Shown here: positions 36,460 through 55,174 of the stretch, in pieces
Layout of the letters: each line of letters opens with the position of its first letter
How positions within the stretch are numbered: position 1 is the first letter of the stretch
Assembly: GCA_014728175.1 (NCBI GenBank)
Contig: WJMA01000051.1
Span: forward strand, 7,279 to 71,278
Reading direction: 5' to 3'
Length of the DNA stretch: 64,000 nt
From: Candidatus Fermentibacterota bacterium
GTDB lineage: Bacteria > Fermentibacterota > Fermentibacteria > Fermentibacterales > JCC-6
Made by a program: the position numbers and the translations under genes
The notes under the pieces: generated by a model
The model's input: only the letters and a program-made list of their open reading frames with translations
Told to the model about the DNA's origin: nothing
The model's database searches: none

Positions 36460-38955
36460 TCAATCGGCAACTTGCTTGCCCGACCTCAGGGCGGAGTACA
36501 CGGAGGTAAGTATGTCCGCCATCCGGTACGGCTTGGGGAGAAACGCCTTCGCGTGCCGGGCGATGAATTCCTGGTCCTCCGGGGAAGGGGTGTAGCCGCT
36601 CCCCACCAGAATCGGCAGCTCCGGACGTTCCTCTCGAAGCTCTCTGGCCAGCTCTATTCCCGTCCCGTCGGGCAGCATTACGTCAGTGAACAGCAGATCC
36701 ATCTCCAATCCTCTCTGGGCGAGTACCTTTCTGGCCTCGGCCAGAGTCTCCGAAAGAACCACCCGGTAGTTGTGAGCCTCCAGGACCTCGTTCAGGAACT
36801 GCAACACGTCGGGATTATCCTCTACCAGCAGAATCAGCTCATCACTTCCAGAGAAGTCTCTCTCCTCTTCGTCGTCCAGCATGGTCGGCAGCATCTCGTG
36901 GGTCGCCTCGGGGAAGTATACGTGGAACACGGTACCCTTGCCCTCGTCGCTCTCTACGTCTATCAGCCCATCGTGCTGCTTCACCAGCCCATGCACCACC
37001 GAAAGGCCCAATCCGGTACCTCTTCCCTCCCCCTTGGTAGTGTAGAAGGGATCGAATATCCGCTCGATCTCCTCCGGGGTCATGCCCGTTCCCTGGTCGG
37101 ACACCTTCAGGCAGACGAAGGAGGGTGCGTCGGCTTCTACGTCCAGAAGGGAGACCACCGCCTCGGTGGCCACTCGATTCATGTCTATGCCGATCTCCCC
37201 TCCCTCCGGCATGGCATCCCGGGCGTTGAGGACCAGGTTCATCACTATCTGCTCCAGCTTCTGGGTTTCCCCGAAGACGGGGGGTAGATCGTCTTCGGCG
37301 TTGACCACCAGCCTGGTGTTCTCTCCCACTATCCGCTCCAGCAGGCTGACCATTCGGAGAACAGTTTTACTCAGATCGATCACGGACTTTCTGACCGGTT
37401 TGTTCATGCTGAACTCGAGCAGCTGCTGGGTGAGAGAGCCTCCGCTTTCTACGGCGCTTACGATAGCCCGCAGCTTCTGCTCGTGCTCGGAACTGACCTT
37501 CCCTTTCAGAAGCATCTCCGCGTTGCCCAATATCACCGAAAGTATGTTGTTGAAGTCGTGGGCTATGCCGCCGGCCAGCTTTCCCAGGCTGGCCAGGCGT
37601 TGATCCCTGCCCAGCTCCATCTCCAGCTGCCTGCGAACCTCGTCGGATAGCATCCTGGCCCTGATCTCGCGCTGGAGCTCCTCGTTCCTCTGCCTTATCA
37701 TCTGCTCCAGCTTCGTCTTGTACTTGGCCAACTCCACGTTGCGCAACCTGTAGATCTCAGCTTCCTTGCGGGATTTCTCCACCTGGTGGGTTATCTCCAT
37801 GCTATGAAGCCTTTGCTCGGCCTTGTCCGACCGGAGCTCCTCTGAGAACCTATGGTGCTCTCTGTAGTGCTCTAGAGCCTCCCTGTGCCTTTTCAGCCTT
37901 TCGTTTACCTCGGCAAGGTTGCTGTGTATCCGGGCCAGATGGGGCTTAAGGTCGGCCTTCTCGGCCATCTCCAGGGCGCTCTGGAGTTGCTCCTGAGCCT
38001 TCTCGTAATCTTCGAGCTCCATCATGGAGCGGGCGATCCCGGACATCTGCTCGACCGCCCCCTTGCTGCTTCTCAGCTCCTCGTAGATGGAAAGGCTTTC
38101 CTCGTAGTAATCGATGGCTTCCTTGTGCTTCCCCATCATTCCCATGTGGTGGCCCAGGTTGCACAGTACGTCCGCTATGCCCTTTCTGTCCTCCAGATCA
38201 TTAAACAGGGCTAGCGACTCGCTGTAGTAGCGCTGCGCCTTGTCGTACTCGCCGAGCTTGGAGCTGAGAATACCGATGTTACACAGAGCGGGCGCGAGGC
38301 CCTGACGCATCTCGTTCTCTCGGTAAATCTCAATGCACTCGTCGTAGTACTCCAGGCCCTTCTCGTACATCTCCAGGGTGGTGTAGATGTTGCCAACGCT
38401 GAGAAGAGTGGTCGCTCTAAGGTTGGGCCGGTCCTCCAGCTGTTCCGAGGTTTCCTTGGCTCGCAGGTAGTAGTCGAGCGCCCTCTCGTAGTCGCCCAAC
38501 CTGAGGTAGACCGATCCGATGTTGATCAAGACCACCGGTTCCACCGGGTCATCGTGCGTCTCGCTTACCCTGAGAGCGTCCATGTAGCTGTCCAGGGCCT
38601 CACCGTAGTTGGTTCTTCTCAGGTGTATCGATCCCAGAACGTTTAGGGAGTCTCTCTCTCCCTCGGCGTCCTCCTGCCTGCGGTAGTCTTCCAGCGCCTG
38701 GAGGGTAAGCTGCTCGGACTGATCCAGACGAGCCTTGAAGAGCTGGCCCACCGCCTGAGCCAGCATGCATTTGGGAATCAGCTTAAGCAATCCCAGCTTC
38801 TCGGCCAGCTCCTGCCCGTCGGTACCGAGTTGTATGGCCCGGGAGGGGTCGAGGTGCTTCACGGCCCAGGCAAGTTCGATTATGGTCTCGGCTCTCTCTC
38901 CCTCGGAGAGGGACTCCTGGAGCTTCTTCTCCAGATGCTCTATCCTACGCTCCAT
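36460..38955 (-). CDS. Hybrid sensor histidine kinase/response regulator with N-terminal TPR repeats
   Basis: The protein contains a TPR array, a coiled coil, a HisKA domain (GGIAHDFNNIL), a HATPase domain, and a C-terminal REC domain (LLVEDNPDV...DVMLPDG). Confidence 0.8.
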   Translation of the reverse strand: MERRIEHLEKKLQESLSEGERAETIIELAWAVKHLDPSRAIQLGTDGQELAEKLGLLKLIPKCMLAQAVGQLFKARLDQSEQLTLQALEDYRRQEDAEGERDSLNVLGSIHLRRTNYGEALDSYMDALRVSETHDDPVEPVVLINIGSVYLRLGDYERALDYYLRAKETSEQLEDRPNLRATTLLSVGNIYTTLEMYEKGLEYYDECIEIYRENEMRQGLAPALCNIGILSSKLGEYDKAQRYYSESLALFNDLEDRKGIADVLCNLGHHMGMMGKHKEAIDYYEESLSIYEELRSSKGAVEQMSGIARSMMELEDYEKAQEQLQSALEMAEKADLKPHLARIHSNLAEVNERLKRHREALEHYREHHRFSEELRSDKAEQRLHSMEITHQVEKSRKEAEIYRLRNVELAKYKTKLEQMIRQRNEELQREIRARMLSDEVRRQLEMELGRDQRLASLGKLAGGIAHDFNNILSVILGNAEMLLKGKVSSEHEQKLRAIVSAVESGGSLTQQLLEFSMNKPVRKSVIDLSKTVLRMVSLLERIVGENTRLVVNAEDDLPPVFGETQKLEQIVMNLVLNARDAMPEGGEIGIDMNRVATEAVVSLLDVEADAPSFVCLKVSDQGTGMTPEEIERIFDPFYTTKGEGRGTGLGLSVVHGLVKQHDGLIDVESDEGKGTVFHVYFPEATHEMLPTMLDDEEERDFSGSDELILLVEDNPDVLQFLNEVLEAHNYRVVLSETLAEARKVLAQRGLEMDLLFTDVMLPDGTGIELARELREERPELPILVGSGYTPSPEDQEFIARHAKAFLPKPYRMADILTSVYSALRSGKQVAD

Positions 38956-39155
38956 ACTCTCCCATTCAACAGCCCTTTCCCGCCCGGGTACGACTTATAG
39001 ATAGCAGAGACGAGCATATCCGTAAACTACGAGCGGCGCGGGACACCGCCGTTGAAATATCGATCCTACGTTCATACCGCCCGCACAGGCCCCGACGATC
39101 CGCAGACTAATCACCTCCATACCTCCATGGAGTGGGGCGTTTATCACCGCTTCGG

Positions 39156-42100
39156 TCAGGCATCGTTTGCCGCCGGCCAATGGTCCGGCCACGGTACCTC
39201 ATCCCGGTCCACTTCCGAGTTCAGAAGTCCTTCACGCAGCAGGACTAGCTCCTCGAACTCGCTAGCTCCCAACTGAAACTCGCTTATCATATCACAGACT
39301 CGGCGGTAGCATTCTAGAGCCCGGGCGTGCCTTCCCTGAAGCAGATGCAGGTAGCCCATGCTGCCCATGGTGAGAGCCTCGCTCCTTCGGGCTCCAGTCT
39401 GCCTGGCGATTTCCAGCGCTTCTCGGCAGCAGCTCTCCGCTTCGTCCAGCCGGCCCTGTTTTCTTCGCAGTATCCCCAGATTGGCGTAGGTTATCCCCTC
39501 GCTGCTTCTGGCTCCGATCTCCCGGGCGATGCGGAGGGAGTCTCGATAATAGCTATCGGCCTCGGAGAGGCGGTCCTGCTTCATACACAGTGTCCCCAGG
39601 TTGCCCAAAGCGATGCCCTCGCCCTTCCTGTTTCCCACCTCCCGACGGATGGCCAGCGATTTGAGATGGCACTCCTCGGCCTTGGCGATTCGCCCCATCT
39701 GGTCGTAGAGGATTCCCATGTTGCCCAGGATGATTCCCTCTGCGCCGCGGGAGCCTATCTCCAGGGCTATTCGGAGTGCCTGGCCCAGGCGTTCCAGAGC
39801 GGTCTTGGGGCTACCGCGCTCGCGGTAAAGGTTGCCCAGATTACCGAGGATGGTGGCCTCGTCCCTTCGGCTTCCCATCTTTCTGGCCAGCTGGAGAGAT
39901 GCCTCGAAGCATCCGATAGCGTCCTCGAATCTTCCGCGATCCCGGTGCAGAATTCCCAGGTTGCCCAGGTTTCTCCTCTCGCTCCACTCGTCGCCCACCT
40001 CCCGGGCCATGCGCAGTGACCGGCTAACGCAACGCTCGGCGTCGTCCAGACGCCCATCCTGTCTGTGCACGGTGACCATGCCCCCTACGATCCTGCCCTC
40101 CAGGCGTCGTGCGCCGGCCGAGCGCACCAGCTCGAGGGCCCCCTCGTAAGCCTGCATGGCCTCTTGGGAGCGGCCGGTGTTCATCAGGAACCACCCCAGC
40201 CTTTCCCTCGCGTGGGCCCGGATCTCCTCGGCGCCGGAGGTGTCGGCCAGCCGGAGGGCCTTTCGGAGCTCGGATTCCTGCTCCGTCCTTCTTCCCTTCA
40301 GATCCAACGCATCCGCTTTGAGCAGCAGGACCTCGACCAGCAGCTCTCCCTTCGAACCGTCCTCGGGAGGTTCCTGCAACCATTCCTCCAGCTTCCCCGC
40401 CATATCCAGAGCCCCGTCCGCCTGGCTGTTTCTCGCCTGAAGCCTAAGAGAGGACATCCCCCACACCAGAGCTCTGTCGGTTCTGCCCGCCCTCTCCCAA
40501 TGGTAGGCCAGGGTTTCCGCCGCCTTCTCCCCCTCACCGCCTTGGATATCCTCGATGCATTCCGCCGCGGCGTGGTGCAGTATCGCCCTGTTTCTGTCCG
40601 TAAGGCTGCCGTAGGCGGTGTCGCGAAGCAGCAACTGCGTAAACCTGCACCTGCTCTCGAAGGCGCTGGTCTGCCGAGCCAAAAGATCCTTGTTCTCCAA
40701 TCCGGTCAGGGCCTCCCGCTCCGCTCTTCTTCCCACTACGCTCTCCGAGAGCATATCCAAAAGGGGCAGTGGGAATTCAACACCCAGGACCGAGGCCCTC
40801 TGTAGAACGTTTCGCCACGTTGTGGGTAGCCTGTCCAGGCGGGATTGAAGCAAACCGGCCAGCGAATCCGGAACGAACACCTCGTCCAGGGACCCGGTGG
40901 GCACCCATTTTCGCTCCACCGTCTCCACGGTCTGCGACTCGACCAGATCCATGACCATCTCCCTGAGGAAGTATGGATTTCCTCCGCTCTTTCGTAGCAC
41001 CAGGTCCAGGAGCCTATCCTCCATACCCTCGGAATCCGGATCGAGGAATTTGAGGACCTCCAGCAGAAGGTTCACGCAGGCCTTTCTCTCCAGGCGGCCC
41101 AACCTGATCTCGGCCAGCTCGGCGTAGCCGGGATGGATTTCTATTCGCACTGGCTCGCCGTTGTCCCTCTCCGGCCTGTAAAGAAGAACGAAGAGAATGC
41201 CCGGCCGGGTATCGCAATTCGCAACCACGAACTCCAGTACCTTGCGGCAGGTCTCCCCCATCCATTGAAGATCGTCCAGAACCAGGATGGTCCTTCGCGA
41301 GGAAGCCACCGATTCCACCAGGTCCCTCACCGCGGTGGTCGTCTCCAGGGCCAGAGCCCGGTCGTCGAGTCCCTCGATTCGGGGGTCCTTGGAATCGATT
41401 GACAGTATCCTGGCCAGAAACGGAGCGGACTGGATCAATCCCTCGTCGTTGGCCAGGGCGCCCACCCGGCGGCAGAGCTCGCCGTAATCCATACTCGGCA
41501 CATCGCCTTTGTATAGCAGGTTTTCGATCAACGTACGCCACAAGAAGTAAGGTGGTTGGGCGGAGGAACACGCCCTTCCCCAGAGAACCTGAATATCGCC
41601 GGAAGGGGAGCCGATCTCTTCCGTGAGCTCAGCCACCAGCCGCGACTTGCCCACGCCGGCTTCCCCGCTGATCCCCAACACGATGTGTCTGGCCCCGCCC
41701 CTGCGGTTGTTTCCTACGCCGCTCTCCTGTCTATGGAGGGCGTTACGCAACTCCTCCAGCTCCTCTTCTCTCCCCACGAACGGGCAGCTTCCAGCATCTC
41801 CCAAAACGACCGGGTCGGGGCCGGGCGAGTCGCCGGCCAGACTGTAGAACCTATTGGTGGGCGCGACATCGCAGGGCTCGAAACTAAAGCCTCCACCGCA
41901 GCCGCGGTACACGCTTTCGGTTACCAGCAGGCTCCCCTCACCGGTCGGATCGGCGAGATCCCTGGCTTCTCCAAGTATTCCCCCCCTGGTTATCGGATCG
42001 CCGGTCCCGTCGGTTACCACCTCTATCGGACCGGCCGAGGCTCCCATACCGAAATCGAGATCGATGCCCCTGGTAGAAAGCACCCGTCTCAGCTCCCTCA

Positions 42101-42875
42101 GGCCCTCGGCGAGCTTGACCGCGCTGCTCACCGCTCTGGAGCTGTCATCCTCCTTGGCCCTCTTTACCCCGAAGATGGACCGGAAATGCAGCGGCCCGGG
42201 CTTGGTGAGGTAACCACCGTAAGCTTCGACTACCCTGCGAACCATGGCCTCCACCGTATCCCGGACGCTCACCATCGCTCTCGGCAGCAGCGTTCCCCCC
42301 TGCTCGGTAAGTCCCGCCAGCCGCAGAGACAGAACGGCAACCCTTCGCCTTTCACCCGGCTGCAGCCTCGAGGTTCTCTCGGAGACAGCGTCTATGGTGC
42401 TCTCCAGCCTTCGTATATCCTCCTCCATCATCACCGAGAGGTTCGACAGATCGGCGGTTACGTTGGATACGGGAGAACCGAGCACCTCCAGGACCCCTTC
42501 CATGCACGATTCCAGGTCCTCCTCCAGCGCGTCATGCCATTGATGGGTAGATATGCAGTAGCGCATCCATTTGGAGAGCTCGACCTCTCCAATGCGGATC
42601 GGTACGATTGGGATGCCACAGCTTACCGCCTGCTCCAGCTCCCGTCTGACCTGGGGCGACCGGTTCGAGCTCTCCGAAAGCACCAGCAACAGTCTGGACG
42701 CGTTCTCTATGGCGTCCACTATGGCCGCCGCCCAGTCCGCTCCGGCCGGGATGTCCCTGGGAGCCATCCAGCAGGAGACGCCCCTGTCCTCCAGAAAATC
42801 CAGGATGCTGCCCGCCCGGTCAGCATCGGAGCTGGAATAGCTGACGAAAACCGCTCTCCCGGGCCTGCCGTTCAA
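39156..42875 (-). CDS. TIR domain - class III adenylyl/guanylyl cyclase domain - P-loop STAND/AAA NTPase - TPR repeat protein (1239 aa)
   Basis: The N-terminal TIR_2 domain matches VFVSYSSSD...CWMAPRDI...LVLSESSNRSPQVRREL with a candidate catalytic Glu. A cyclase-homology domain follows (RRVAVLSLRLAGLTE...). The Walker A motif is GISGEAGVGKSRL. About 400 aa of TPR repeats form the C-terminus. Confidence 0.75.
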   Translation of the reverse strand: MNGRPGRAVFVSYSSSDADRAGSILDFLEDRGVSCWMAPRDIPAGADWAAAIVDAIENASRLLLVLSESSNRSPQVRRELEQAVSCGIPIVPIRIGEVELSKWMRYCISTHQWHDALEEDLESCMEGVLEVLGSPVSNVTADLSNLSVMMEEDIRRLESTIDAVSERTSRLQPGERRRVAVLSLRLAGLTEQGGTLLPRAMVSVRDTVEAMVRRVVEAYGGYLTKPGPLHFRSIFGVKRAKEDDSSRAVSSAVKLAEGLRELRRVLSTRGIDLDFGMGASAGPIEVVTDGTGDPITRGGILGEARDLADPTGEGSLLVTESVYRGCGGGFSFEPCDVAPTNRFYSLAGDSPGPDPVVLGDAGSCPFVGREEELEELRNALHRQESGVGNNRRGGARHIVLGISGEAGVGKSRLVAELTEEIGSPSGDIQVLWGRACSSAQPPYFLWRTLIENLLYKGDVPSMDYGELCRRVGALANDEGLIQSAPFLARILSIDSKDPRIEGLDDRALALETTTAVRDLVESVASSRRTILVLDDLQWMGETCRKVLEFVVANCDTRPGILFVLLYRPERDNGEPVRIEIHPGYAELAEIRLGRLERKACVNLLLEVLKFLDPDSEGMEDRLLDLVLRKSGGNPYFLREMVMDLVESQTVETVERKWVPTGSLDEVFVPDSLAGLLQSRLDRLPTTWRNVLQRASVLGVEFPLPLLDMLSESVVGRRAEREALTGLENKDLLARQTSAFESRCRFTQLLLRDTAYGSLTDRNRAILHHAAAECIEDIQGGEGEKAAETLAYHWERAGRTDRALVWGMSSLRLQARNSQADGALDMAGKLEEWLQEPPEDGSKGELLVEVLLLKADALDLKGRRTEQESELRKALRLADTSGAEEIRAHARERLGWFLMNTGRSQEAMQAYEGALELVRSAGARRLEGRIVGGMVTVHRQDGRLDDAERCVSRSLRMAREVGDEWSERRNLGNLGILHRDRGRFEDAIGCFEASLQLARKMGSRRDEATILGNLGNLYRERGSPKTALERLGQALRIALEIGSRGAEGIILGNMGILYDQMGRIAKAEECHLKSLAIRREVGNRKGEGIALGNLGTLCMKQDRLSEADSYYRDSLRIAREIGARSSEGITYANLGILRRKQGRLDEAESCCREALEIARQTGARRSEALTMGSMGYLHLLQGRHARALECYRRVCDMISEFQLGASEFEELVLLREGLLNSEVDRDEVPWPDHWPAANDA

Positions 42876-43572
42876 ATGGAGATCACCTTCCCTATACGGA
42901 TCGTAGCCTGCTGCAGAGCAAGGTGATCCACCGGCTCAGCGGCCTTCTGCCGAGGAAAAGGCAAAAGTGCTTTTCTGCACTCTCCATGGCCATCACCGTC
43001 TCTTTCGCTGGACCACTCACGGGTACCGTTCGCATTCGAAGGCTCGGGATGAGCCTTAGCGTGGCGATTGAGGAATTGATAAAAGCACAAGGCTTCCAAA
43101 ACCAGTATCGGGGAGATCACAAGACGGCCCCGATCACTCTAGAGTCCCCCATGCGGGAGCTCTTAGAGGATTTCGATGGCTAAAGAAGACCTTCCTCAGT
43201 CATTCCAGCAGCTAACAGGAATATTGGAGGTCGGTAACACCGCGGTTACCTGACCCGGTTGCACCGGTTTGCACATTGGCTGTAAACTACAGCACAGTAC
43301 CACAAGAAATATGTTTGTTTATAATTTGATGAAATATATAATAGCACAGTTGGACTAAATTTTCCTCTGGTAAGCATATTGCTCAAGTTTTATACGAGTT
43401 GACCGTGTACGGGTCGGCCCGCCGGGAAGAGGAATCGTTCCAGGGTATACCCGAAGGCCCGACCGCCAAGTGGACACGGCAACGAGACTGAGGACTTCCC
43501 AACCGGAGTCCCCCACCACGCCGATGGGGCCCGTGGTAACCTTTCCGCGGGCCCTATCTTTGTCGGAGGAAG

Positions 43573-44916
43573 CTATTGCGGACTATCCGGGACGGCCGCC
43601 GGCCGTAATCCTACGAAAGGATAGCCCATCTCCGACTCCAATACCAGCCGGCTGTCTACTCGGCACATGGAACTGTCGGAGATCCAGCTTCCTCCGGCGG
43701 CCAGTACCCTGGAGGTATCTTCCGGATCCACCACCATCTCCCATACGTTTCCCGCCATGTCGTAGATCATCCAGGGATTGGGAGGGAAGCATCCGGTGGG
43801 AGCGGTGATGGGGTAGCCATCGTCCAGACCTGGACACCTCTGCAGAATGGTCTCGCTGGAATCGGACAGGTTGAGCCTCCCTCCGGTGGGAGAGCAGTCG
43901 CCCCACGGGTAAGGGCCCCTTCTCCCGGCTCTCGCCGATACCTCCCACTGATGGATGGTAGGCAGATCGAACCGCAAGTCTGGCAGCCCCTGGGGAGGGT
44001 TCTCTGTAAGCCATTCACAGTAAAGCTCGGAGGCTTCTCGGGTCATGCCGACCGCCGGATGGTCCTCCAGGCCCTTTGCCGGGACGTACCCGGCGACGGA
44101 ATCGGCAAGGATGCCGATTCTCCAATCCACAGGGAACAGCCTCTCCATGAGCAGGGTGTAACCTTCCCTGCAGGTAGTGTCCCTTTCCATGTCCGGATCC
44201 ACGTCGGACAGGCACCTGCAGAACTGTCGGTTCGTCACCTCTCGCCGGGCTATGAAAAACGGCCGAAGCTCGACCCTTTCCAGGGCAGCCGGGGTCGTAT
44301 CCGAAGGCGATCGGGAGGAGACGTAGTAGGACCCTCCGGGGACCCGTACGAATCCTCCGTCGTGGGTGATTCGGGGAAGGACGTAGTTGTGGGTTCGCGG
44401 TCGGTTGGTGAGGAGGGTAACGCTGTCCAGCACCGAGATCCCGGAGGGCAGAGACAACAAAAGCTGGTGCGCACCGGGCCGGGAGACCTTCAACGAGACA
44501 GGGGTGGATCCGGACCGGACTCCGTTCAGATAGACAAAAGCCCCCGGGGGCTCGGAGACTACGTTCACCTCGAAGAGGTAAGGTAGCTCTATCGTGAGAC
44601 TGGCAGAATGCGGATGTACAACGGTATCGACCGGAACCCGGTTCGGGGCGGACAGGTTTACCGAGACGCCCTCCTGGGGTACGGGGATGACCGCCGGGGT
44701 GGAAAGACGCATCCCGTCGCCGGTGCGTACCGTGGCATCGGGAATGCAATAGACGGTCACCATTCTGACCGGCCAATCGGGAACCAGGATAAGCAGAAGC
44801 AAAATGGCCAGCAGAATAACTTCGCCAACCAGGAGAAGGTTGTCACCCAGCTTTCGGAGGATTGGCTGGATCAGCCCGACCAATCGTTGCTCAGTGCGGC
44901 CTTGAAGTCGTTCCAC
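43573..44916 (-). CDS. Formylglycine-generating enzyme (SUMF1/FGE) family protein with N-terminal TM and PEGA domain
   Basis: The FGE-sulfatase domain (RGGSW-like AAGGSW, YRxxxxP-like, CRVDSR) is C-terminal. A PEGA-like segment (EPPGAFVYLNGVRSGSTP) follows an N-terminal transmembrane helix. Confidence 0.6.
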   Translation of the reverse strand: MERLQGRTEQRLVGLIQPILRKLGDNLLLVGEVILLAILLLLILVPDWPVRMVTVYCIPDATVRTGDGMRLSTPAVIPVPQEGVSVNLSAPNRVPVDTVVHPHSASLTIELPYLFEVNVVSEPPGAFVYLNGVRSGSTPVSLKVSRPGAHQLLLSLPSGISVLDSVTLLTNRPRTHNYVLPRITHDGGFVRVPGGSYYVSSRSPSDTTPAALERVELRPFFIARREVTNRQFCRCLSDVDPDMERDTTCREGYTLLMERLFPVDWRIGILADSVAGYVPAKGLEDHPAVGMTREASELYCEWLTENPPQGLPDLRFDLPTIHQWEVSARAGRRGPYPWGDCSPTGGRLNLSDSSETILQRCPGLDDGYPITAPTGCFPPNPWMIYDMAGNVWEMVVDPEDTSRVLAAGGSWISDSSMCRVDSRLVLESEMGYPFVGLRPAAVPDSPQ

Positions 44917-46304
44917 AACTGCCCCATCCGCAGATCACGCCAGAACCTCTTCCAGACGTACGAGAACCGGAAGTAGAAACGGCGGTGGAACAGCGCGTAG
45001 CAATGGCGGATCGTTTTCCAATCCAGGTTCTCGTGCTGCCACACGTCGCTGGTGGAGTGGAAGTTATAACGGCTCCAGTCCTTAGAGAGTATCCTCCCGT
45101 CCCGCTCCACGAGCTTGTAAAGAGGTGAGGAGGGATAGGGAAGGGTCATGGTGGTCTTGGCGTAGGTGAGGGGAAGGCTGCGGGCGAACTCGATGGTCCG
45201 GCGCATGGTCTCCTCGGTCTCTCCGGGCAGGCCCATCATGAAGAAACCCACCGTCTCCAGGCCGGCGTCGTCAGCCATCTGGACCGCGTTCCTTATCTGC
45301 TCGGGGGTCTGGTCCTTGTTCACCCGGTGGAGTATCTCCGGAACTCCGCTCTCGATGCCGAAGGATATCTGGTAGCATCCGGCCGCCGCCGCCAGCTCGA
45401 AGAACTCCCTGTCCACATCCTCCACGTTCACCCCGGTAGGGAGAGCCCATGGGGCGGAGAAGCCCTTCTCCATCATCAGCCTGATCGTCTTCTTGGCGGT
45501 TTCGATGTCCGCGGTGAAGTTGTCGTCCTTTATGTGGATGTCACGGAAGCCCATATCCAGCATCCTGAACATCTCGTCCACTACCCGCTGCGGTGACTTC
45601 GAACGGACCTCGTGGCCGAAGATCCTCTGGCTGCAGTAAAGGCAATGGTGGTTGCATCCCCGGTTGGTCTCCATGTACCCTACGGGGTTGTCCCGACTGG
45701 CTATGTGCGGCGCCCGGTAGCGACTGAGGTCGTGCAGCTGCCAGGCCGGAAGGGGAAGGTCGTCGAGGTTCTCTATCAGCTTTCTGGGAGGGGTTTTCGT
45801 GAAATCGTCCCCCTTTCCGAAAGCTATGCCGTCGATCCTCTCCGGGTCGATGCCGCTGGCTATCTCCACCATGGTCCGCTCGCCCTCCCCCAGGCAGACC
45901 AGGTCGAAGTTGCCTTCCTCCAGGGACTCCCTGGGAAGAGTTGTGGGGTGGATACCTCCGGCTATGGTGGTTACCTCCGGCAGCGTCTCGTGCGCTATAC
46001 CGGCCAGATGTAGGGCCTCGTGGTACATGGGGGTGGCGAAGGTTATCCCCACGTAATGGGGCCGGAACTCCTTTAGCTGCTGCAGGTAAGCGTCCAGTGG
46101 ATGTTCCTCGACTATCAGGTCGAGTATCCTGACCTCGTGATCCTCTTCCAGCAGTGCGCCGGCAAGGCTGGCCAGAGCTATGAAGGGGGCCTTGGTCATG
46201 GCCACCTTCACCTTGCTCTTGCTGTAAAGGCCCAGCGCCGACGCCGGGTTCACCAGAAGAACTCTGCTCAAATCTCCCCGCCCTTCCGCATCAGGTGAGA
46301 ACAC
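44871..46304 (-). CDS. B12-binding domain radical SAM protein (class B), divergent member
   Basis: N-terminal B12-binding fold followed by a radical SAM domain with CNHHCLYCS; 477 aa. Confidence 0.75.
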   Translation of the reverse strand: MFSPDAEGRGDLSRVLLVNPASALGLYSKSKVKVAMTKAPFIALASLAGALLEEDHEVRILDLIVEEHPLDAYLQQLKEFRPHYVGITFATPMYHEALHLAGIAHETLPEVTTIAGGIHPTTLPRESLEEGNFDLVCLGEGERTMVEIASGIDPERIDGIAFGKGDDFTKTPPRKLIENLDDLPLPAWQLHDLSRYRAPHIASRDNPVGYMETNRGCNHHCLYCSQRIFGHEVRSKSPQRVVDEMFRMLDMGFRDIHIKDDNFTADIETAKKTIRLMMEKGFSAPWALPTGVNVEDVDREFFELAAAAGCYQISFGIESGVPEILHRVNKDQTPEQIRNAVQMADDAGLETVGFFMMGLPGETEETMRRTIEFARSLPLTYAKTTMTLPYPSSPLYKLVERDGRILSKDWSRYNFHSTSDVWQHENLDWKTIRHCYALFHRRFYFRFSYVWKRFWRDLRMGQLWNDFKAALSNDWSG

Positions 46305-46445
46305 TAGTCAAACCCCCATAATCAAACAAGGACCTCGGGGACGTTTTTCAAAATGCCAAAAACCCCGATGATTCCCGATGCCGAAACCAGCCCTCCCCTC
46401 GCACCGTACATTAATAGTACCAATTATGATAAAGGCTTAAAAGGT

Positions 46446-47987
46446 TTAGGAACGTCCCCGGTTGTGGATGCGGTTCAGGATCAGGGCGAAGCGCTCCTTC
46501 GCACCGCCCGTGTTCATCGCCTTCAGCAGCCCGTGGTACAGGGGATTCAGAAGGCGTATGAGGAACCTCAGAGGAGGAGTCTCCATGAGCTTGACCAGGG
46601 GCCGGAAGGAGAGAACCTTGAGAAGCCAGCCGGGAGCGCCCTTGTTCAGGAGGGTGAACAGAATGTTCACGTACCTGGCCTCCCGGTGGTGGTCCTCCTT
46701 CAGGTAGTGAGCCCTGGGGTCCTCTATCACTCCTTCCTCCAGGGCCTTTTTGTGGAGCTCGGTACCCGGGAAGTAGGTCAGGGAGAACAGTTGCAGCTTG
46801 CGGGGCTGCGGAAGCCGCATGGCCACCTCGAAGGTCCGTATTATTGAGTCCACGCTCTCGAAGGGGTTGTCCAGGATGATGTCGTAGGTGAGCTCGCAGG
46901 ATCCATCGGTCATCCGCTGCAGCTCCAGAGACCTTTCCACCAGCTGGTCCGGGGAAAAGTGTCCCCGCTTGTACAGCCTGTTGGTGCGGTCGGAAGCGGA
47001 CTGCAGACCCACCTCCGCTCTGTTAAGACCGGCCCTCAGCAAAGGCTGCAGCCTCTTCTCTATCATGTAGTCCTCCGTCAGAAGACAGAAGAAGGGCAGG
47101 CCTATCTCATCGCGGTACCTCTCGGTGAACGCCCTCAGGTCATCGAGCTTCACCGCCGCGAAGCAGTCGTCGACGAACACCAGGCGGTTGAACCAGGGGT
47201 ACATCTCCCTCATGGAAACCAACTCGGACATCAGGTGCTCCACGCTGCGCTTTCTGTAGAACCGCTCACCCTGGTAGAGCTCCAGCAGATAGTCGTTTAT
47301 GCAGAAGGAGCAGTGGTAGGGGCAGCCCCTGGTCCAGATCGTCTCGTAGACAACGCTGTCCGCCTCGTCGAAGTTGGAGCCCGCGGTCCAGAACTCCCTC
47401 ATAAGAAGCTCGGTCAGGGGAACTATCTCGTCGCCCAGCAGAACGTGGTGGTCGTCCAGGGAGTAATCCGGGGGAGGTACCGAGTCCAGATCGGATATCA
47501 GGGGGCGCAGGGGGTTCATAACCTCCCGCCCTTCCTTCCTGACCATCATGTTGGGGACGTCGAGAGGCCTCTCTTCCTCCTCCAGACGCCCGGCGAGCTC
47601 CAACAGGGCCTCCTCGCCCTCTCCTACGCAGACGTAGTCGGCATGCTCCAGGCACTCCTCCGGAGACACGGTTGGATGGACCCCGCCCCAGACCACCGGA
47701 ACGGAGATCCTCTCCCTCACCCTGTCGGTCAGGTCACCGACTTTATGGAAATAATTGGTCGCCAGGGAGAATCCGACCAAACCCGCGTCCTGGCACAGCT
47801 CTACCAGCTGATCGACCGCCCGGTCGGGGTAGTTGCCCACGAAGTCTACGCCGTTGGTGGCCATGGACACTACGTCCGGCATGAACACCAGCCTGGTGGA
47901 GTGTCCCTTCCTCTTCAGATATGAGCTGAGCACGCGAATGCCCAGAGTTGTGAGCTGGGAATAGGGAGAGACGAGCACGATCCTCAC
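46446..47987 (-). CDS. B12-binding radical SAM protein, tandem paralog 1
   Basis: MRIVLVSPY... B12 domain plus TRGCPYHCSFCIN; 513 aa. About 60% identical to the next two genes. Confidence 0.8.
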   Translation of the reverse strand: MRIVLVSPYSQLTTLGIRVLSSYLKRKGHSTRLVFMPDVVSMATNGVDFVGNYPDRAVDQLVELCQDAGLVGFSLATNYFHKVGDLTDRVRERISVPVVWGGVHPTVSPEECLEHADYVCVGEGEEALLELAGRLEEEERPLDVPNMMVRKEGREVMNPLRPLISDLDSVPPPDYSLDDHHVLLGDEIVPLTELLMREFWTAGSNFDEADSVVYETIWTRGCPYHCSFCINDYLLELYQGERFYRKRSVEHLMSELVSMREMYPWFNRLVFVDDCFAAVKLDDLRAFTERYRDEIGLPFFCLLTEDYMIEKRLQPLLRAGLNRAEVGLQSASDRTNRLYKRGHFSPDQLVERSLELQRMTDGSCELTYDIILDNPFESVDSIIRTFEVAMRLPQPRKLQLFSLTYFPGTELHKKALEEGVIEDPRAHYLKEDHHREARYVNILFTLLNKGAPGWLLKVLSFRPLVKLMETPPLRFLIRLLNPLYHGLLKAMNTGGAKERFALILNRIHNRGRS

Positions 47988-48040
47988 GGGAACAACCCCC
48001 GAAAACAGTCGAGCGGGCGCTATGCCCGCAATTTCGTGGC

Positions 48041-48070
48041 ATTATGTGCCCGCCGCGGAGCGGACGTCAA
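48041..48070 (-). promoter_or_regulatory. Sigma70-like promoter TTGACG-18nt-CATAAT for rSAM paralog 1
   Basis: The reverse complement of 48041-48070 reads TTGACGtccgctccgcggcgggcaCATAAT. It lies ~55 nt upstream of the start at 47987. Confidence 0.45.
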
Positions 48071-49611
48071 GGAAGCTCGTCCGCCTCCTCCATGTTCTCG
48101 AAGATCCGGGTGAAGTTCTCCTTGGCCCAGGCTCGCCGTGCTCTCCTTATCCTCTTCCAGACAATGGGCTGCAGACGGTTGAACAGGAAGCGGAAGGGTG
48201 GAGATTCCATTAGGTACACCAGGGGAGGGAAGGACAGGATCCTGAAGAGCCACGTAGGAATCTTTCTGTTGAGCAGCACGAAGAGGAAATTGATGTACCT
48301 GGCCTCCCGCTTCTCGTTGTCCTTGAGGTAATGCACTCTGGGATCCTCTATTGTTCCATCCTCCAGAGCCTTCCGGTGCAGCTCTATGCCCGGATAGAAG
48401 GTGAACGAGAACAGATGGAGCCACTTGGGCTCCGGGAGCTTCGCGGCCAGGCGGAGGGTCTTCAGATGGTCGCTCACGGTCTCGTACGGGTTGTCCAGAA
48501 TGATGTCGTAGTTTATACGTGCCCTTCCCCCGGATAGATCGGCGAAATCGAGCGTCCGCTCGACGAACTGGTCGGACGAGAAGTGCTTCCTCCTGTAAAT
48601 CTCGTTCATTCTCGGCGATGCGGTCTGCAGCCCCATCTCCACCATTCTCAGGCCGGCATCCAGCAGGGGCTCCACTCTGGGCGGCACCATGTAGGAATCC
48701 GTGAACAGTGTGAAAAACGGCTTGTCTATCTCAGCCTTGTACCGCTGCGAGAATTTCCTGAGCTCCTCGGGCTTTGCGGCTGTGAAGCAGTCGTCCGTGA
48801 AGACCACGTGGGTGAACCAGGGGAACCTCTCCTTTATATGGCTCAGCTCTGACATCAGATGGTCCACGCTTCGCCTGCGGAAGTAGCTCTCCCCCTTGTA
48901 GAGGTGGAGGAGGTGGTCGTTTATGCAGAACGAACAGTGGTAGGGGCAGCCCCTGGTGTACTGGGTCTCGTAGATGATGTCGTTCTCGCATTCGAAGTAG
49001 GAGCATGCGGTCCAGTACTTTCTCATGAGGGACTCGGTAAGGGGCTTTATGGTGTCGCCCACCAGAACGTGGTGGTCATCAAGCGAGTAATCGGGTATGG
49101 GCACGGTGTCGAGATTCTCGATCAGCGGGTGGAGGGGATTTCTTGCCACCTCGCCGCCGGACCTGGACCAGGTGTTGGGCACGTCTGTGGGACACTCTTC
49201 GATCTCGAGGCGGTTTGCAAGCTCCAGCAAGGCATCCTCGCACTCTCCCAGGCAGACGTAGTCGGCGTAGTCCAGGCATTCCTCAGGGGAGACTGTCGGA
49301 TGCGCGCCTCCCCAGACCACCGGAATGGATAGTCTCTCCCTAAGCGCCTTGCTAAGCTCTGACACCTTGTAGAAGTAATTGGTCATCAGTGAGAAGCCCA
49401 CCAGGCCGGCGTCCTGGCAAAGCTCGATGAGCTGCTCGTCCACACCCTCGGGATAGCTGGCCGAAAAATCGCTGCAGGAAGAAATAATCGACCTTACGTC
49501 GGGCAGAAACACCAGTCTCGTACTGTGTCCGTTCTTCCTCAGATACGAGCTGAGACAGCGCACGCCCATGGATGCAAGCTCGATGTAGGGCGAAACCAGA
49601 ACAACCTTCAT
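48067..49611 (-). CDS. B12-binding radical SAM protein, tandem paralog 2
   Basis: MKVVLVSPY... plus TRGCPYHCSFCIN; 514 aa. Confidence 0.8.
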   Translation of the reverse strand: MKVVLVSPYIELASMGVRCLSSYLRKNGHSTRLVFLPDVRSIISSCSDFSASYPEGVDEQLIELCQDAGLVGFSLMTNYFYKVSELSKALRERLSIPVVWGGAHPTVSPEECLDYADYVCLGECEDALLELANRLEIEECPTDVPNTWSRSGGEVARNPLHPLIENLDTVPIPDYSLDDHHVLVGDTIKPLTESLMRKYWTACSYFECENDIIYETQYTRGCPYHCSFCINDHLLHLYKGESYFRRRSVDHLMSELSHIKERFPWFTHVVFTDDCFTAAKPEELRKFSQRYKAEIDKPFFTLFTDSYMVPPRVEPLLDAGLRMVEMGLQTASPRMNEIYRRKHFSSDQFVERTLDFADLSGGRARINYDIILDNPYETVSDHLKTLRLAAKLPEPKWLHLFSFTFYPGIELHRKALEDGTIEDPRVHYLKDNEKREARYINFLFVLLNRKIPTWLFRILSFPPLVYLMESPPFRFLFNRLQPIVWKRIRRARRAWAKENFTRIFENMEEADELP

Positions 49612-49661
49612 AGGCGAAAACCCCGCGGCGGAATCTAAGGATGCCTGAAATTCCCCTTCGG

Positions 49662-49690
49662 GATTATTTACTTGCTGCCATTATACGTCA
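49662..49690 (-). promoter_or_regulatory. Sigma70-like promoter TTGACG-17nt-AATAAT for rSAM paralog 2
   Basis: The reverse complement reads TTGACGtataatggcagcaagtaAATAAT. A TATAAT copy directly abuts the -35 element. Confidence 0.4.
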
Positions 49691-49723
49691 AGGAAATACC
49701 GCTGAGACCCCGCTGAATAAGCA

Positions 49724-51303
49724 TCAGGCAGGCGTATCGGCCTTGCTCTCGACATCCGCAGAGCTCTCCGTCCGACGCGGCGATCCCTCGTCCAGCATGC
49801 CGGCGAAGTTCTGCTCGGCCCATCTTATCCGGTCGGCGCGCAGCATTCTCCAGTACAGAGGCTTGAGAAGACCGAACAGGAACCGAAAGGGCGGGGACTC
49901 CATCAACCGTACCCATGGCTTGAAGGCCAGGATCTTGAGCATCCATCGGGGTACGCCCTTGTTTAGAAGAGTGAACAGGAAATTTACGTAGCGGGCCTCG
50001 CGGTGATGGTTGTCCTTCGTATAGTGAACTCTGGGGTCCTCAATTGTTCCGTCCGCCAGGGCTTTCCGATGCAGCTCTATGCCCGGATAGAAGGTGAACG
50101 AGAACAGGTGGAGCTTCTTGGGCGGGGGCAGCCTTTCCGCAAGCCATAGGGTCTTGAGCAGGGCGTCGACGTCGTCGTAGGGATTGTCCAGAATGATGTC
50201 GTATATGATCGGAACCTCGCCCTCGGTCAGCTCCGTGAACCGCCTGGCCCTTCTCAGAATCCTCTCCGGGGAAAAGTGCGGCCTTCTGTACAGCCGGTTG
50301 GTTCTGTCGTCTGCCGACTGCAAGCCCACCTCCACTATCTGCATCCCGGCTTTCTTCAACGGCTCTATCCTTTCGTCCACCATGTACGTATCCGTGAACA
50401 GGCAGAAGAAGGGAACCCCTATCTCCTCCCTGTAGCGCTGGGCGAAATGCTGCAGCTGCTCGACCGGGTTCGCCGTGAAGCAGTCGTCGGTGAATACGAT
50501 GTTGTTGAACCATGGGAAGCGCTCCCTGATGGATGTAAGCTCCGTCATCAGGTGGTCGACGCTCCGCCTGCGGAAGAACCTCTCCTCACCGTACAGGCCC
50601 AGGAGGTATCCGTTGATGCAGAACGAGCAGTGGTAGGGGCAGCCCCTGGTCCACATGGTCTCGTATATGACCTCGTCGGGCTGGTCGAAGTAGGAGCAGG
50701 CCGTCCAGAACGTCCGCATCAGGGACTCGTCCAGGGGGACTATCCGGTCCCCGAGGAGAACGTGGTGATCCTGCAGCGAGTAATCGAGTTGGGGCAGAGA
50801 GTCCAGATCGATTATTAGAGGCTTCAGCGGGTTGCGGACCACTTTCCCGTCGACCAGGTTGAGCATGTTGCCCACGTCCTTGGGGTTCTCTCCCTTCTCC
50901 AGCCTGTCCGCCAGCTCCAGAATGGAGTCCTCTCCCTCTCCCACGCAAACGTAGTCGGCGTACTCCAGGCATTCCTCCGGCGATATGGTGGGGTGAACGC
51001 CTCCCCAGACTACGGGCACGGATAGCCTTTCCCGCACCGTCCTGCTCAGCTCTGCGACCTTGAAAAAGTAGTTCGTGGACAGGGAGAACGCCACCAGGTC
51101 GGCATCGGTGCAGAGATCCACCAACTGCTCGTCCACCCCTTCCGGGTACGGCTGGGCGTAGTCGGAGCCCTTGTCTCTGGTGGAGATTACGTCCGGCAGG
51201 AAAATCAGCCTGGTTCGATGGCCGTGGGCCTTTAGATAGGCACCTATAGACCTCACCCCGATCGATGTAAGCTGGGCGTAGGGTGAGATGATCGCGACGA
51301 GCA
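49724..51303 (-). CDS. B12-binding radical SAM protein, tandem paralog 3
   Basis: MLVAIISPY... plus TRGCPYHCSFCIN. The start was trimmed to MLVAII (~51303). Confidence 0.8.
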
Positions 51304-51357
51304 TTTGGCTCCCCCCGGAAACTAAGACGGACGGGCCTTCACCCACTATGGTTTGGC

Positions 51358-51387
51358 CATTATACGAGCCCCGTTAACAAGCCGTCA
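51358..51387 (-). promoter_or_regulatory. Sigma70-like promoter TTGACG-18nt-TATAAT for rSAM paralog 3
   Basis: The reverse complement reads TTGACGgcttgttaacggggctcgTATAAT, ~55 nt upstream of the ATG, with a GGGGGAG Shine-Dalgarno. Confidence 0.45.
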
Positions 51388-51396
51388 AGTAAGCGT

Positions 51397-52219
51397 CTAT
51401 GCACTCTTTTCGGTGCTACGCCGATCCGAATCGAGACCCATAGCCAAAGCCCAGGACAAGGCCAGAAGGCAAACCGTAAGAACCGGGGAGGACTCCGGTC
51501 CGAAGCCGGCCCACAGAGGATTTCTCTGGCTGAGAACGGAGGGCAGCTGGAAGCCGCTCACCCTCCAACCCAGCACCATTCCGGTGGTCAGGTTCCAGCC
51601 GTAGTGAACCAGGATGGGAGCGATTATTCCGCCACTGGCCATTCTGAGCAGACACAGCAACACTCCGAACAGACCTATGTTGACTACCGCCAAAGGCCCG
51701 GCCCCCGGATTTGCGGAGTGAGCGACGGCGAACAGCAGGGAAGACAACCCAATTCCGATGTACGACCGGCCACAGAAGCTCAAGGTGTCCAGGAAGTACA
51801 GCCTGAACACGATCTCCTCCGCGGAGGCGGCCAGGATCAAGGCCAGAGCGGCGACCAGCCATTTCCCGGGCAGCGCGGTACCCAGGCTGGGATTCCCGAG
51901 CGTGGAGACGTAGACGAAGGGCAGCAGCAGGGCCGCGGCCGAGAGCAGGATCAGGTCCGGGTTCCGCAGCCGCCATCTTCCGAATACCGGGTGCACGCAA
52001 AGCAGGAAGGGCAGTAGAAGGGTAGAAGCGGCCATTCCCCCCAGGGCGGCCCGGACCAGAAAGTCGTCGCTGCCGGCCAACCGGGCAAAGAGATCGCTGG
52101 CACAGCTCCACGTGAGCACCCCTGAGAGAAGAACCAGCCTGGTGGCTACATCCTTCAATCGGTGGCCGGCAGCGCAGGTATCGGCGTCCGTCAACTCCTC
52201 AGATGGAAAGGCCTGGAAC
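51397..52219 (-). CDS. CPBP family intramembrane glutamic endopeptidase (CAAX protease/Abi-like)
   Basis: EEIVFR (EExxxR), FAVAHS (FxxxH) and HYGWN motifs within a multi-helix membrane protein. The start was taken at MFQAF. Confidence 0.65.
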
Positions 52220-54161: not shown

Positions 54162-55174
54162 AGGCCTTTGCCCAACATGTACCGGGCCATGTCCACCATC
54201 CGGGCCGCATAGCCATACTCGTTGTCGTACCAAGAGAGTACCTTGACCAAGCCGCCGTCCATGACCCGAGTCATCTCCGCGTCGAATATCGAGCTGCGGG
54301 CGTCACCCACTATATCGGTGGACACCAGGGGCTCCTCACTGTAGCCCAGGATGCCCTGGAGCGGGCCCTCGGCCGCGGTTCTCATAGCCGAGTTCACCTG
54401 GTCGACCGTGACGTCCTTCTCCAGCTCGCAGACCAGGTCCACCAGCGAGCCGTCCGTCAGCGGTACCCTGGCCGCCATACCGTCGAGCCTTCCGTTGAGC
54501 TCGGGAATGACCAGACCCACCGCCTTCGCCGCGCCGGTGGTGGTGGGAACCAGGTTCACCGCCGCCGCCCGGCCCCGTCTGAGGTCCTTGTGGGGGAGGT
54601 CGAGAATATTCTGGTTGCTGGTGTAGGCGTGGATGGTGGTCATTATCCCCCTGCGGATACCGAACCTGTCGTGGAGAACCTTGGCCACCGGGACCAGGCA
54701 GTTGGTCGTGCAGCTGGCCGTAGACAGCACCGTATGGCTGCCGGGGTTGTAAAGTTCGTGGTTGACCCCGTAGACCACGGTCAGATCGGCCCCCTCTTCG
54801 CCCTTGGCCGGGGCGCTGAGGAGGATCTTTGCCGCGCCGGCCTGGAGATGCTTGGCCGCCTTGTCCCTGGTTCTGAAAAGCCCCGTGGACTCGATCACTA
54901 TGCCCACGTCCATCTCCTCCCAGGGTAGCTTGGAGGGATCCGGCTCGGAGAGCACCTTCACCGATTCGTCTCCGGTGGTAATCACATCGCCCTCCAGGAC
55001 CACCTCACCGGGGAACTTGCCGTGAACCGAGTCGTACCTGAGCAGATAGGCCAGGGTGGCGGGATCGGTAATGTCGTTGACCGCCACCACGTCTATATCA
55101 CCGGTCCTCAGAGCGTGCCTGTAGACCAACCTTCCTATTCTACCGAAACCGTTTATAGCGACTTTTGTACCCAT
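54158..55174 (-). CDS. gap: Glyceraldehyde-3-phosphate dehydrogenase
   Basis: NGFGRIGR Rossmann motif, ASCTTNCL active site and WYDNE; 338 aa. Confidence 0.95.
   Translation of the reverse strand: MGTKVAINGFGRIGRLVYRHALRTGDIDVVAVNDITDPATLAYLLRYDSVHGKFPGEVVLEGDVITTGDESVKVLSEPDPSKLPWEEMDVGIVIESTGLFRTRDKAAKHLQAGAAKILLSAPAKGEEGADLTVVYGVNHELYNPGSHTVLSTASCTTNCLVPVAKVLHDRFGIRRGIMTTIHAYTSNQNILDLPHKDLRRGRAAAVNLVPTTTGAAKAVGLVIPELNGRLDGMAARVPLTDGSLVDLVCELEKDVTVDQVNSAMRTAAEGPLQGILGYSEEPLVSTDIVGDARSSIFDAEMTRVMDGGLVKVLSWYDNEYGYAARMVDMARYMLGKGL

Follow-up and report, generated by a model that had tools for sequence, protein, structure and literature searches.

A Fermentibacterota protein joining a TIR domain and a degenerate class III cyclase domain to a STAND-TPR core: a candidate NLR-like sensor-effector

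Antiphage Avs (AVAST) proteins that carry a TIR or SIR2 effector at the N-terminus, directed at NAD+, have a STAND NTPase in the centre and a sensor of the tetratricopeptide repeat (TPR) type at the C-terminus of the same polypeptide. Avs5, for instance, is a SIR2-STAND-repeat protein. TIR domains in Avs proteins are treated as NAD+-depleting effectors (10.64898/2025.12.03.692087). Plant TIR-NLRs follow the order TIR, nucleotide-binding oligomerisation domain (NOD) and repeats. Kaur et al. (2020, PMC7159879) also reported AP-ATPases bearing a TIR domain at the N-terminus and TPRs at the C-terminus and, from other conflict systems, cyclic nucleotide monophosphate (cNMP) cyclase domains lacking catalytic activity. 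In Pycsar/Pucsar systems, an active cyclase works in trans with a TIR or transmembrane effector, and its cNMP switches on a separate TIR effector via a cNMP-binding domain. Here, we examine a gene that brings several of these elements together in a single 1239-aa protein. It lies at 39156-42875 on the minus strand of a 64,000-nucleotide stretch (the window) of contig WJMA01000051.1 from an uncultured Candidatus Fermentibacterota bacterium, and encodes a TIR domain, a degenerate class III cyclase homology domain, a STAND NTPase module and a TPR array.

We propose that this protein is a single-polypeptide, NLR-like sensor-effector in which the TIR domain provides a NAD+-cleaving output, the dead cyclase serves as a dimerising scaffold and the whole acts in conflict or defence. 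Taken as a complete proposal, we hold its chances to be about even. The protein is identical to NCBI MBD3370564.1, which is encoded on a 71-kb contig and annotated 'tetratricopeptide repeat protein [Candidatus Fermentibacteria bacterium]'; the TIR domain, the dead cyclase and the STAND module are all absent from this public annotation. Its open reading frame (ORF) begins with a TTG codon preceded by a GGAAGG(TG) motif a few bases upstream, and a 92%-identical orthologue on a metagenomic contig (locus L008) uses the same TTG start. Against this orthologue, the whole-gene ratio of nonsynonymous to synonymous substitution rates (dN/dS) is 0.18, and this value, like those of the individual domains, indicates purifying selection. 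Pfam confirms the long ORF with TIR_2, an AAA_16 P-loop and TPRs that the original prediction had read from the sequence, with a TPR stretch of about 350 aa. Across the family to which the protein belongs, mean pairwise identity is 64% in the TIR domain, 53% in the NTPase, 46% in its helical part, 42% in the cyclase-like domain, 36% in the linker and 35% in the TPRs.

The TIR_2 domain (PF13676; aa 9-117, 42525-42851, minus strand) is matched by Pfam at an E-value of 5.8e-22, scoring 78.9 bits against a cut-off of 28. In the AlphaFold2 model, aa 9-108 alternate strand and helix. It is the most conserved domain of the family and has a dN/dS of 0.065-0.078. Profile matches in the PDB include TIR-STING (1.6e-10) and the CRISPR-associated TIR protein Cat1 (1.2e-5), while the closest PADLOC TIR models are TIR-SAVED (CBASS; 3.7e-10), TIR-pAgo and Thoeris ThsB. 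A glutamate in the RREL motif had been singled out as the candidate catalytic residue, and this is upheld. Residue E79 (42639-42641, minus strand) lies inside the invariant SNxSPQVRRELExAVS, and is unchanged in 14 family members and in proteobacterial relatives. In alignments it falls on the Glu of the Cat1 segment 'WDELEQA' and on the corresponding Glu of TIR-STING from oyster. An invariant Glu of this catalytic type points to an enzyme rather than a mere adaptor, and the window TIR domain probably cleaves NAD+.

The same TIR subfamily (CWxAPRDI ... SNxSPQVRRE) is also found in poly-TIR proteins (P0124, P0130, P0135 and P0143). The 780-aa P0124 contains a row of 4-5 TIR domains, and as many as 7 are present in proteins 1800-2200 aa long. 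A 227-272-aa protein of this TIR subtype is encoded directly downstream of a Tll0287-like plus HAMP gene in Massilia and other Gammaproteobacteria. This pair of genes is recurrent (L042, 9101-11807; L026, 9124-10702) and has the look of a signalling system.

The NTPase module spans aa 363-860 (40296-41789, minus strand) and comprises nucleotide-binding, helical and winged-helix parts. Pfam matches AAA_16 at aa 365-561 (E 1.6e-15). The Walker A motif GEAGVGKS (41643-41666) and the Walker B motif LVLDD (41271-41285), both on the minus strand, are intact, and GxxGxGKS, hhhhL[DE]D and a further YRPE motif are invariant in the family alignment. Searches of the PDB by sequence returned no match to the module, either with the single sequence or with a 15-sequence profile. 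Its AlphaFold2 model has a predicted local distance difference test score (pLDDT) of 85, and Foldseek matches this model to Apaf-1 (1.8e-10), the bacterial STAND-TPR protein 6mfv (5.6e-10) and MalT (8bob, 5e-8). Further matches are CED-4, ZAR1 and the plant TIR-NLRs Roq1, RPP1 and WRR4A; over Apaf-1, 6mfv, CED-4, MalT and the plant NLRs, E ranges from 2e-10 to 1e-7. By its modelled fold, the module is a genuine STAND module, and the earlier reading of its P-loop as one of the STAND/AAA_16 kind stands on Pfam, Walker motifs and fold search alike. NACHT (PF05729) and NB-ARC did not appear in the Pfam scan of the window protein, nor did bNACHT in the PADLOC scan.

The presumed sensor is the TPR array at aa 861-1205 (39261-40295, minus strand), which matches TPR_12 at E 2.5e-49 and TPR_MalT at E 2.6e-21; the Pfam families TPR_12, TPR_1 and TPR_MalT together cover roughly aa 860-1200. 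The array is among the least conserved regions of the protein and is followed by a short, conserved C-terminal tail that ends in PWPxHW and runs to the stop at 39156. The tripartite effector-STAND-TPR logic suggested at the outset is therefore retained, with an invariant candidate catalytic Glu in the effector and a STAND fold in the switch.

Between the TIR domain and the NTPase lie two elements that set this protein apart. The first is a linker (aa 118-172; 42360-42524, minus strand) with the alignment invariants S147, D153 and L157. A long helix is predicted at aa 143-167, carrying a conserved DLSxLSxLLEDD and sitting directly N-terminal to the cyclase-like domain; in the AlphaFold2 model its pLDDT is low. 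The second is the cyclase-like domain itself (aa 173-346; 41838-42359, minus strand), in which the fold is kept and the catalytic residues are gone.

Homology of this domain to class III cyclases was detected by both profile and fold. PF00211 (Guanylate_cyc) has no match in the window protein at E <= 0.1. The NCBIfam model TOMM_kin_cyc (TIGR03903) covers aa 174-956 with the part that spans cyclase and ATPase (E 1.3e-46). Ten family members were combined into a profile of aa 140-362, which matched class III cyclases in the PDB at E 2e-10 to 1.5e-7, namely Cya2 (2w01, E 2.2e-10), the phytochrome-cyclase 6fht and CyaB (3r5g). The AlphaFold2 model of aa 1-365 has a mean pLDDT of 75 and a predicted TM-score (pTM) of 0.51. 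Its top Foldseek matches are class III cyclase domains only (E 1e-12 to 1e-9), with TM-scores of 0.75-0.83 normalised to the target.

The catalytic residues were checked in an alignment with 14 canonical cyclase-AAA_16-TPR relatives that match PF00211. The segment of the first metal-binding Asp, 'LFaDvvGST' in the canonical proteins, reads 'LSLRLAGLT' in the window and 'LHItfs..' in other members. The segment holding the substrate Lys and the second metal Asp changes from 'KfiGDavmavFG' to 'KPGPLHFRSIFG', 'RiGinsG' becomes 'fGmGasaG' with loss of the RiG Arg, and the Asn/Arg segment 'GDxVNvAARLE' becomes 'GgiLgeArdLAd'. In the window protein, the first and second metal Asp are thus R185 and L229, the Asn is G302 and the Arg is D306. 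These positions vary among TIR-STAND family members and are retained in the canonical cyclase relatives, so that no alternative catalytic set is conserved. Nevertheless, the structural motifs GERR and EDDxxRA are preserved, and a dN/dS of 0.15-0.18 means that the domain is still constrained. It is best described, from profile, modelled fold and alignment, as a pseudo-enzyme and a true class III homologue. With both metal Asp residues, the Asn and the Arg lost, cyclic nucleotide synthesis is not expected, and the domain should make no cyclic nucleotide. The class III cyclase domain of the original prediction thus survives as a homologue but not as a second-messenger generator, its catalytic residues being replaced and unconserved.

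The family is small and taxonomically narrow. A word-indexed search found 13 full-length relatives of 36-92% identity, all with TIR_2, AAA_16 and TPRs and all lacking PF00211. The next most similar proteins are canonical cyclase(PF00211)-AAA_16-TPR proteins, with 25-29% identity across some 80% of the length; overall, the closest non-family architectures are cyclase-, Ser/Thr kinase- and SARP-AAA_16-TPR. In an exhaustive HMMER search of 1.84 billion cluster representatives with a TIR-plus-cyclase-like profile, about 13 clusters (50% identity) spanned both domains, and several thousand other strong matches were TIR-only. This bears out the claim that the combination of TIR, cyclase-like domain, AAA_16 and TPRs is unusual. 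PF00211 occurred in none of the family clusters scanned, and the same exhaustive search yielded no active TIR-plus-cyclase intermediates. Counting one genome per GTDB species, all 15 organism-named full-length loci are from Fermentibacterota (15/15), with Fermentibacterales, Fermentibacteraceae, Sabulitectum and Aegiribacteria represented, and within this phylum the family occurs as paralogue pairs and tandem arrays. Literature searches turned up no description of the TIR-cyclase-STAND-TPR architecture, of this family, of TIR proteins in Fermentibacteria or of a dead cyclase between a TIR domain and a STAND NTPase.

The simplest history is that a cyclase-AAA_16-TPR signalling STAND gained an N-terminal TIR domain in Fermentibacterota, after which the cyclase lost catalysis and stayed as structure. 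This reading as effector replacement is supported by the nearest outside relatives being canonical cyclase-AAA_16-TPR proteins.

Some family members deserve separate mention. The public call for the P0002 gene starts at 'MAPRDI' inside the TIR domain (L001, about 9893-10001). Homology to the window at the DNA level reaches about 85 nt farther upstream, which indicates that the call is N-terminally truncated. L004/L005 contain a TIR island at 2217-23708. TIR-STAND paralogues of 1233, 1278 and 1235 aa stand there in tandem, followed by another three proteins with TIR_2 (587, 890 and 991 aa), a Na/H exchanger and an AAA_16 protein of 1360 aa. In L004, a DDE transposase lies at the upstream end of this island.

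In the mechanism we propose, the C-terminal TPR array would keep the protein off until it binds a ligand, probably a protein or peptide. Ligand binding would lead to nucleotide exchange in the STAND NTPase and to oligomerisation, which would cluster the N-terminal TIR domains and allow them to cleave NAD+. The resulting depletion, or a signal derived from ADP-ribose, would then arrest growth or kill the cell. The dead cyclase domain would be an inheritance from a cyclase-AAA_16-TPR ancestor whose effector role was taken by the TIR domain, and together with the preceding helix (aa 143-167) it would be kept as a dimerising scaffold that pairs TIR domains. Class III cyclase domains function as dimers, so a dead one could act as a built-in dimeriser, and scaffolding is the most likely role of this domain and its helix. 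The biological role is most likely one in conflict or defence, of the abortive-infection type, in Fermentibacterota.

If this is correct, the family clearly exemplifies effector replacement among STAND proteins, with an enzyme demoted to scaffold and a TIR domain as output, and would illustrate a route from ordinary signalling ATPases to NLR-like receptors. The family would also add a TIR-STAND type that goes unrecognised in present defence catalogues and offer a compact test case for the control of TIR NADase activity by pairing geometry. More tentatively, Fermentibacterota may own an NLR-like receptor repertoire in which cyclase-STAND-TPR proteins were capped with a TIR domain and the cyclase was silenced, the dead dimer and helix pairing the TIR domains and, in the ancestral locus, zinc-ribbon/TM2 membrane proteins encoded directly upstream of each paralogue perhaps acting as partners. 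We regard this broader idea as possible rather than probable; if it is true, the dead-cyclase platform would be an undescribed wiring of a TIR NADase to a STAND switch.

The comparison with described systems supports an analogy of layout rather than membership. Like Avs proteins, the window protein has an N-terminal effector predicted to target NAD+, a central STAND NTPase and a C-terminal TPR-type sensor in one polypeptide, and ligand-induced oligomerisation would be expected to activate the effector. It differs in its AAA_16/MalT-like NTPase and in the dead cyclase between effector and NTPase. Avs hidden Markov models (HMMs) match the P-loop only, their sole PADLOC match being Avs2 at E 0.024 over aa 370-420 (50 residues). 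The window copy also lacks a clear defence-island context. The resemblance to Avs and bNACHT proteins noted earlier therefore holds for the layout, but not for family membership by HMM, given this single Avs2 match and the lack of NACHT.

Plant TIR-NLRs share the order of domains, and the model of the NTPase can be overlaid on Apaf-1, CED-4 and plant NLRs. However, unlike these proteins and the TIR-AP-ATPase-TPR systems, the window protein has no NB-ARC Pfam match and carries the extra dead cyclase; the neighbours scanned also lack vWA-MoxR and peptide-processing domains. Thoeris offers little likeness, since ThsB matches are weak (E 0.011-0.015) and no SIR2, Macro or SLOG domain occurs in the neighbours scanned. 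Pycsar/Pucsar systems (10.64898/2026.08.12.744502) resemble the locus in having a cyclase-fold protein, a TIR NADase and a small membrane protein, the last being present in relatives of the window locus. In contrast to them, the window protein carries its dead cyclase in cis, together with a STAND/TPR module, and Pfam finds no cNMP-binding domain in it. Taken together, the protein would work like TIR-bearing Avs proteins and plant TIR-NLRs, by analogy, while falling outside Avs1-5 and bNACHT by HMM.

Comparison with signalling proteins gives the complementary picture. The cyclase-AAA_16-TPR proteins are of the M. tuberculosis Rv0386 type, and many of them are annotated 'class 3 adenylate cyclase/TPR repeat protein'. 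Their homology to the window protein extends through the cyclase-like domain, NTPase and TPRs, and they share the GERR and EDDxxRA motifs. They differ in having all catalytic residues, a PF00211 match and, in many cases, a zinc-ribbon N-terminus, whereas the window family has an N-terminal TIR domain and a dead cyclase. The window protein is a descendant of this group, not a functional member. Similarly, MalT and AfsR share an AAA_16-type NTPase followed by MalT-like TPRs (MalT 8bob is a Foldseek match, and the AfsR NCBIfam model matches the TPR part), but the window protein has no DNA-binding domain and a TIR domain as effector. The TOMM kinase/cyclase fusion (TIGR03903) is likewise not its class: the score of 159 bits falls below the equivalog cut-off of 706, only profile positions 283-1045 are covered and the N-terminal kinase domain is missing.

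Several observations weigh against a sensor-effector with a role in defence. The relative placement of the TIR and cyclase-like domains is uncertain in the model, as its pTM value reflects. The TPRs of the orthologues evolve at a dN/dS of 0.14-0.17, which is purifying rather than diversifying. The NTPase falls in the AAA_16/MalT-like group, in which signalling proteins predominate among the known members, and defence and non-defence clades are interspersed in a recent STAND phylogeny (PMC13581612), so that clade membership alone cannot decide function. The window copy resides in a core chromosomal region, with glycolysis and radical-SAM genes upstream and, in the syntenic locus L001, gyrB further downstream. 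Synteny of the locus persists in relatives with as little as 70% protein identity. PADLOC recognised no defence system on the contig, giving domain-level matches only, and relatives were not found among IMG/VR viral contigs. With core and signalling genes as the neighbours scanned and synteny this deep, the original prediction of a defence module on this contig is not supported, and a defence role for the protein itself is best called plausible.

The main rival is a STAND protein for housekeeping or environmental signalling, in which the TIR domain gives a regulatory ADP-ribose-type signal or acts as an adaptor, possibly feeding the hybrid kinase encoded next door; we consider it a possible but less than likely account. 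As predicted, a TPR-HisKA-HATPase_c-Response_reg hybrid kinase gene (36460-38955, minus strand; Pfam) lies immediately downstream of the TIR gene. The two are syntenic in four loci, no terminator-like site was found between them in the terminator scan, and the setting is core genome. Outside the family, the nearest relatives have signalling architectures, PAS-GGDEF genes adjoin the copies in L007 and L023, purifying selection runs along the whole protein, TPRs included, and the absence of any system recognised by PADLOC fits signalling too. However, the kinase neighbours the TIR gene in the close clade only and not in 15 other family loci. Its TPRs resemble those of the TIR protein only generically, at 23-30% identity, and a specific TPR sensor common to both proteins was rejected for that reason. 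The invariant Glu speaks against the adaptor version. Tandem arrays, transposase and AbiE neighbours, and the loss of a second paralogue described below fit a conflict gene better than a signalling gene.

The AbiE link comes from a census of 98 neighbouring ORFs at 15 non-syntenic family loci, in which AbiEii with AbiEi was the commonest neighbour family and adjoined the TIR-STAND gene in 4 of the 15. These loci form one sister subclade (48-86% identity) spread over several genera, with differing positions and orientations, and an AbiE remnant is present in L013. Other family loci adjoin FG-GAP and PAS-GGDEF genes. Signs of a conflict gene across the family are the paralogue pairs, the three-copy array beside three TIR proteins and a transposase, the AbiE linkage, the low conservation of the TPR region and the loss of paralogue B at the window locus. 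The AbiEi/AbiEii genes themselves lie at 13869-15310 in L002, 8662-10148 in L010, 8163-9640 and 15596-17043 in L015, and 10083-11515 in L017.

The history of copy loss is recorded in the spacer upstream of the TIR gene (42876-43572), which was compared with three syntenic relatives: L008, with the 92% orthologue, and L001 and L006, at 70%. As predicted, the region is a stretch of about 700 bp (697 bp) without an intact gene and contains an AT-rich island. In all three relatives, a divergent cassette sits here between the PEGA/FGE-sulfatase gene and the TIR gene. On the TIR strand, it has a gene for a small zinc-ribbon/TM2 protein just upstream of the TIR gene (TM2 match E 1e-19 in the intact genes of L001, L006 and L008). 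On the opposite strand, a gene for a zinc-ribbon membrane protein of 233-288 aa precedes a second TIR-STAND paralogue (B), which is about 40% identical to the first.

In the window, these genes persist as relics. A 47-codon ORF at 42892-43035 (minus strand) is what is left of the TM2/zinc-ribbon gene, as shown by blastn and by translation against L008 4397-4786. It keeps the first 23 codons and a 17-nt 'CLFLG' island of the TM2 domain, while the zinc ribbon and the TM2 domain have been deleted. Next to it, a divergent intergenic block at 43036-43121 is 84% identical to L008 (blastn, window 42966-43156 to L008 4466-4274) and is the likely promoter site for both the TM2-TIR operon and the lost zinc-ribbon/paralogue B operon. 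Relics of the latter two genes follow at 43124-43215 on the plus strand, identified by translation against L008 proteins. The N-terminal ~9 codons of the 233-aa zinc-ribbon gene are fused to its C-terminal '...PMRELLEDFDG*', and the first ~12 codons of paralogue B ('..KKTFLSHSSS*') extend to about 43215; by blastn, window 43151-43212 matches L008 3579-3639. In a three-way alignment with L006 and L001, the stretch from 43225 to 43572 corresponds to the convergent intergenic region that once separated the lost paralogue B from the PEGA/FGE-sulfatase gene. Sequence comparison thus identifies the spacer as a deletion scar holding remnants of three genes still intact in the relatives, and the scar indicates that the TIR-STAND locus gains and loses copies. 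Variable presence of the locus, raised in the original prediction, is accordingly a matter of parts: synteny is conserved down to 70% identity, yet paralogue B and a VanW gene vary in presence.

Two candidates arising from this comparison were rejected. TM2 and zinc-ribbon genes are not general partners of the family, as they are confined to the close syntenic clade. P0006 (MBD3370401.1), a paralogue-B-type protein recorded under 'Candidatus Fermentibacteria bacterium', is not the lost paralogue B moved to another site, since it is only 69% identical to paralogue B of L008. Its accession is close to that of the window protein and it may belong to the same metagenome-assembled genome.

The scar also bears on the AT-rich island, which had been read as consistent with horizontal acquisition or with a strongly regulated promoter. 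Positions 43201-43400 have a GC content of 40%, the lowest 200-bp value in the window (mean 61%, standard deviation 4%) and more than five standard deviations below the mean, with an AT-rich core at 43290-43400 of 31% GC; after the deletion, the island lies about 350-500 bp upstream of the TIR gene. Against acquisition, the TIR gene and both its flanks are colinear with relatives at 70-92% protein identity, its GC content of 58-70% is in line with the window and the adjoining relics belong to genes that are intact in the relatives. As for a promoter, the island is colinear with the relatives' convergent 3' intergenic region, downstream of two gene ends, the AT-rich core being its poorly alignable middle. 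The divergent block at 43036-43121 is the better promoter candidate, and a sigma-70 scan found no promoter-like site or hexamers in the spacer. The relics and the colinear convergent region imply that the island is not a mark of TIR gene acquisition nor, most likely, a promoter, and either interpretation now seems very improbable. Other searches gave no sign of mobility: no tRNA gene was found as an integration-site marker, no further copy of the AT-rich sequence occurs in the window or in the loci that the search covered, and no flanking repeats suggest a mobile element. One terminator-like site in the spacer is within chance expectation, and Rfam matched nothing in the whole window or the spacer.

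Least credible of all is a dual second-messenger enzyme in which the TIR domain and an active class III cyclase both signal under STAND/TPR control, because the domain, although truly homologous to class III cyclases, gives no PF00211 match at E <= 0.1 and has lost the metal Asp pair, substrate Lys, RiG Arg, Asn and Arg that canonical relatives keep in full.

The remaining neighbours scanned around the locus are core or signalling genes. Upstream of the spacer, 43573-52590 (minus strand) contains the PEGA/FGE-sulfatase-like gene, a tandem run of four B12-binding radical-SAM paralogues (44871-51346) and a gene for a protease of the Rce1/CAAX type (51397-52590). Synteny with L001 covers the sulfatase-like gene and the three radical-SAM genes closest to it. 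Then come a 680-aa phosphoglycerate kinase-triosephosphate isomerase fusion (52191-54233, minus strand) and an SPFH/Band 7 protein with a C-terminal double zinc ribbon (58739-59881, minus strand), with GAPDH, PFK, KDO8P synthase and YceG among the further upstream neighbours. Downstream lie the hybrid kinase gene, two small genes that Pfam does not match significantly and a gene for an AMP-binding enzyme.

Two smaller features of the locus were also observed. A 30-nt block at 43492-43521, GGACTTCCCAACCGGAGTCCCCCACCACGC, lies a short way downstream of the PEGA/FGE-sulfatase gene. L001 and L006 share this block without a change though its flanks diverge, and it contains a short hairpin (GGACT...AGTCC) with no Rfam match. 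The VanW gene stands between the TIR gene and the kinase in L001 (13708-14511) and in L006, and is absent from the corresponding interval of the window (38956-39155) and from L008.

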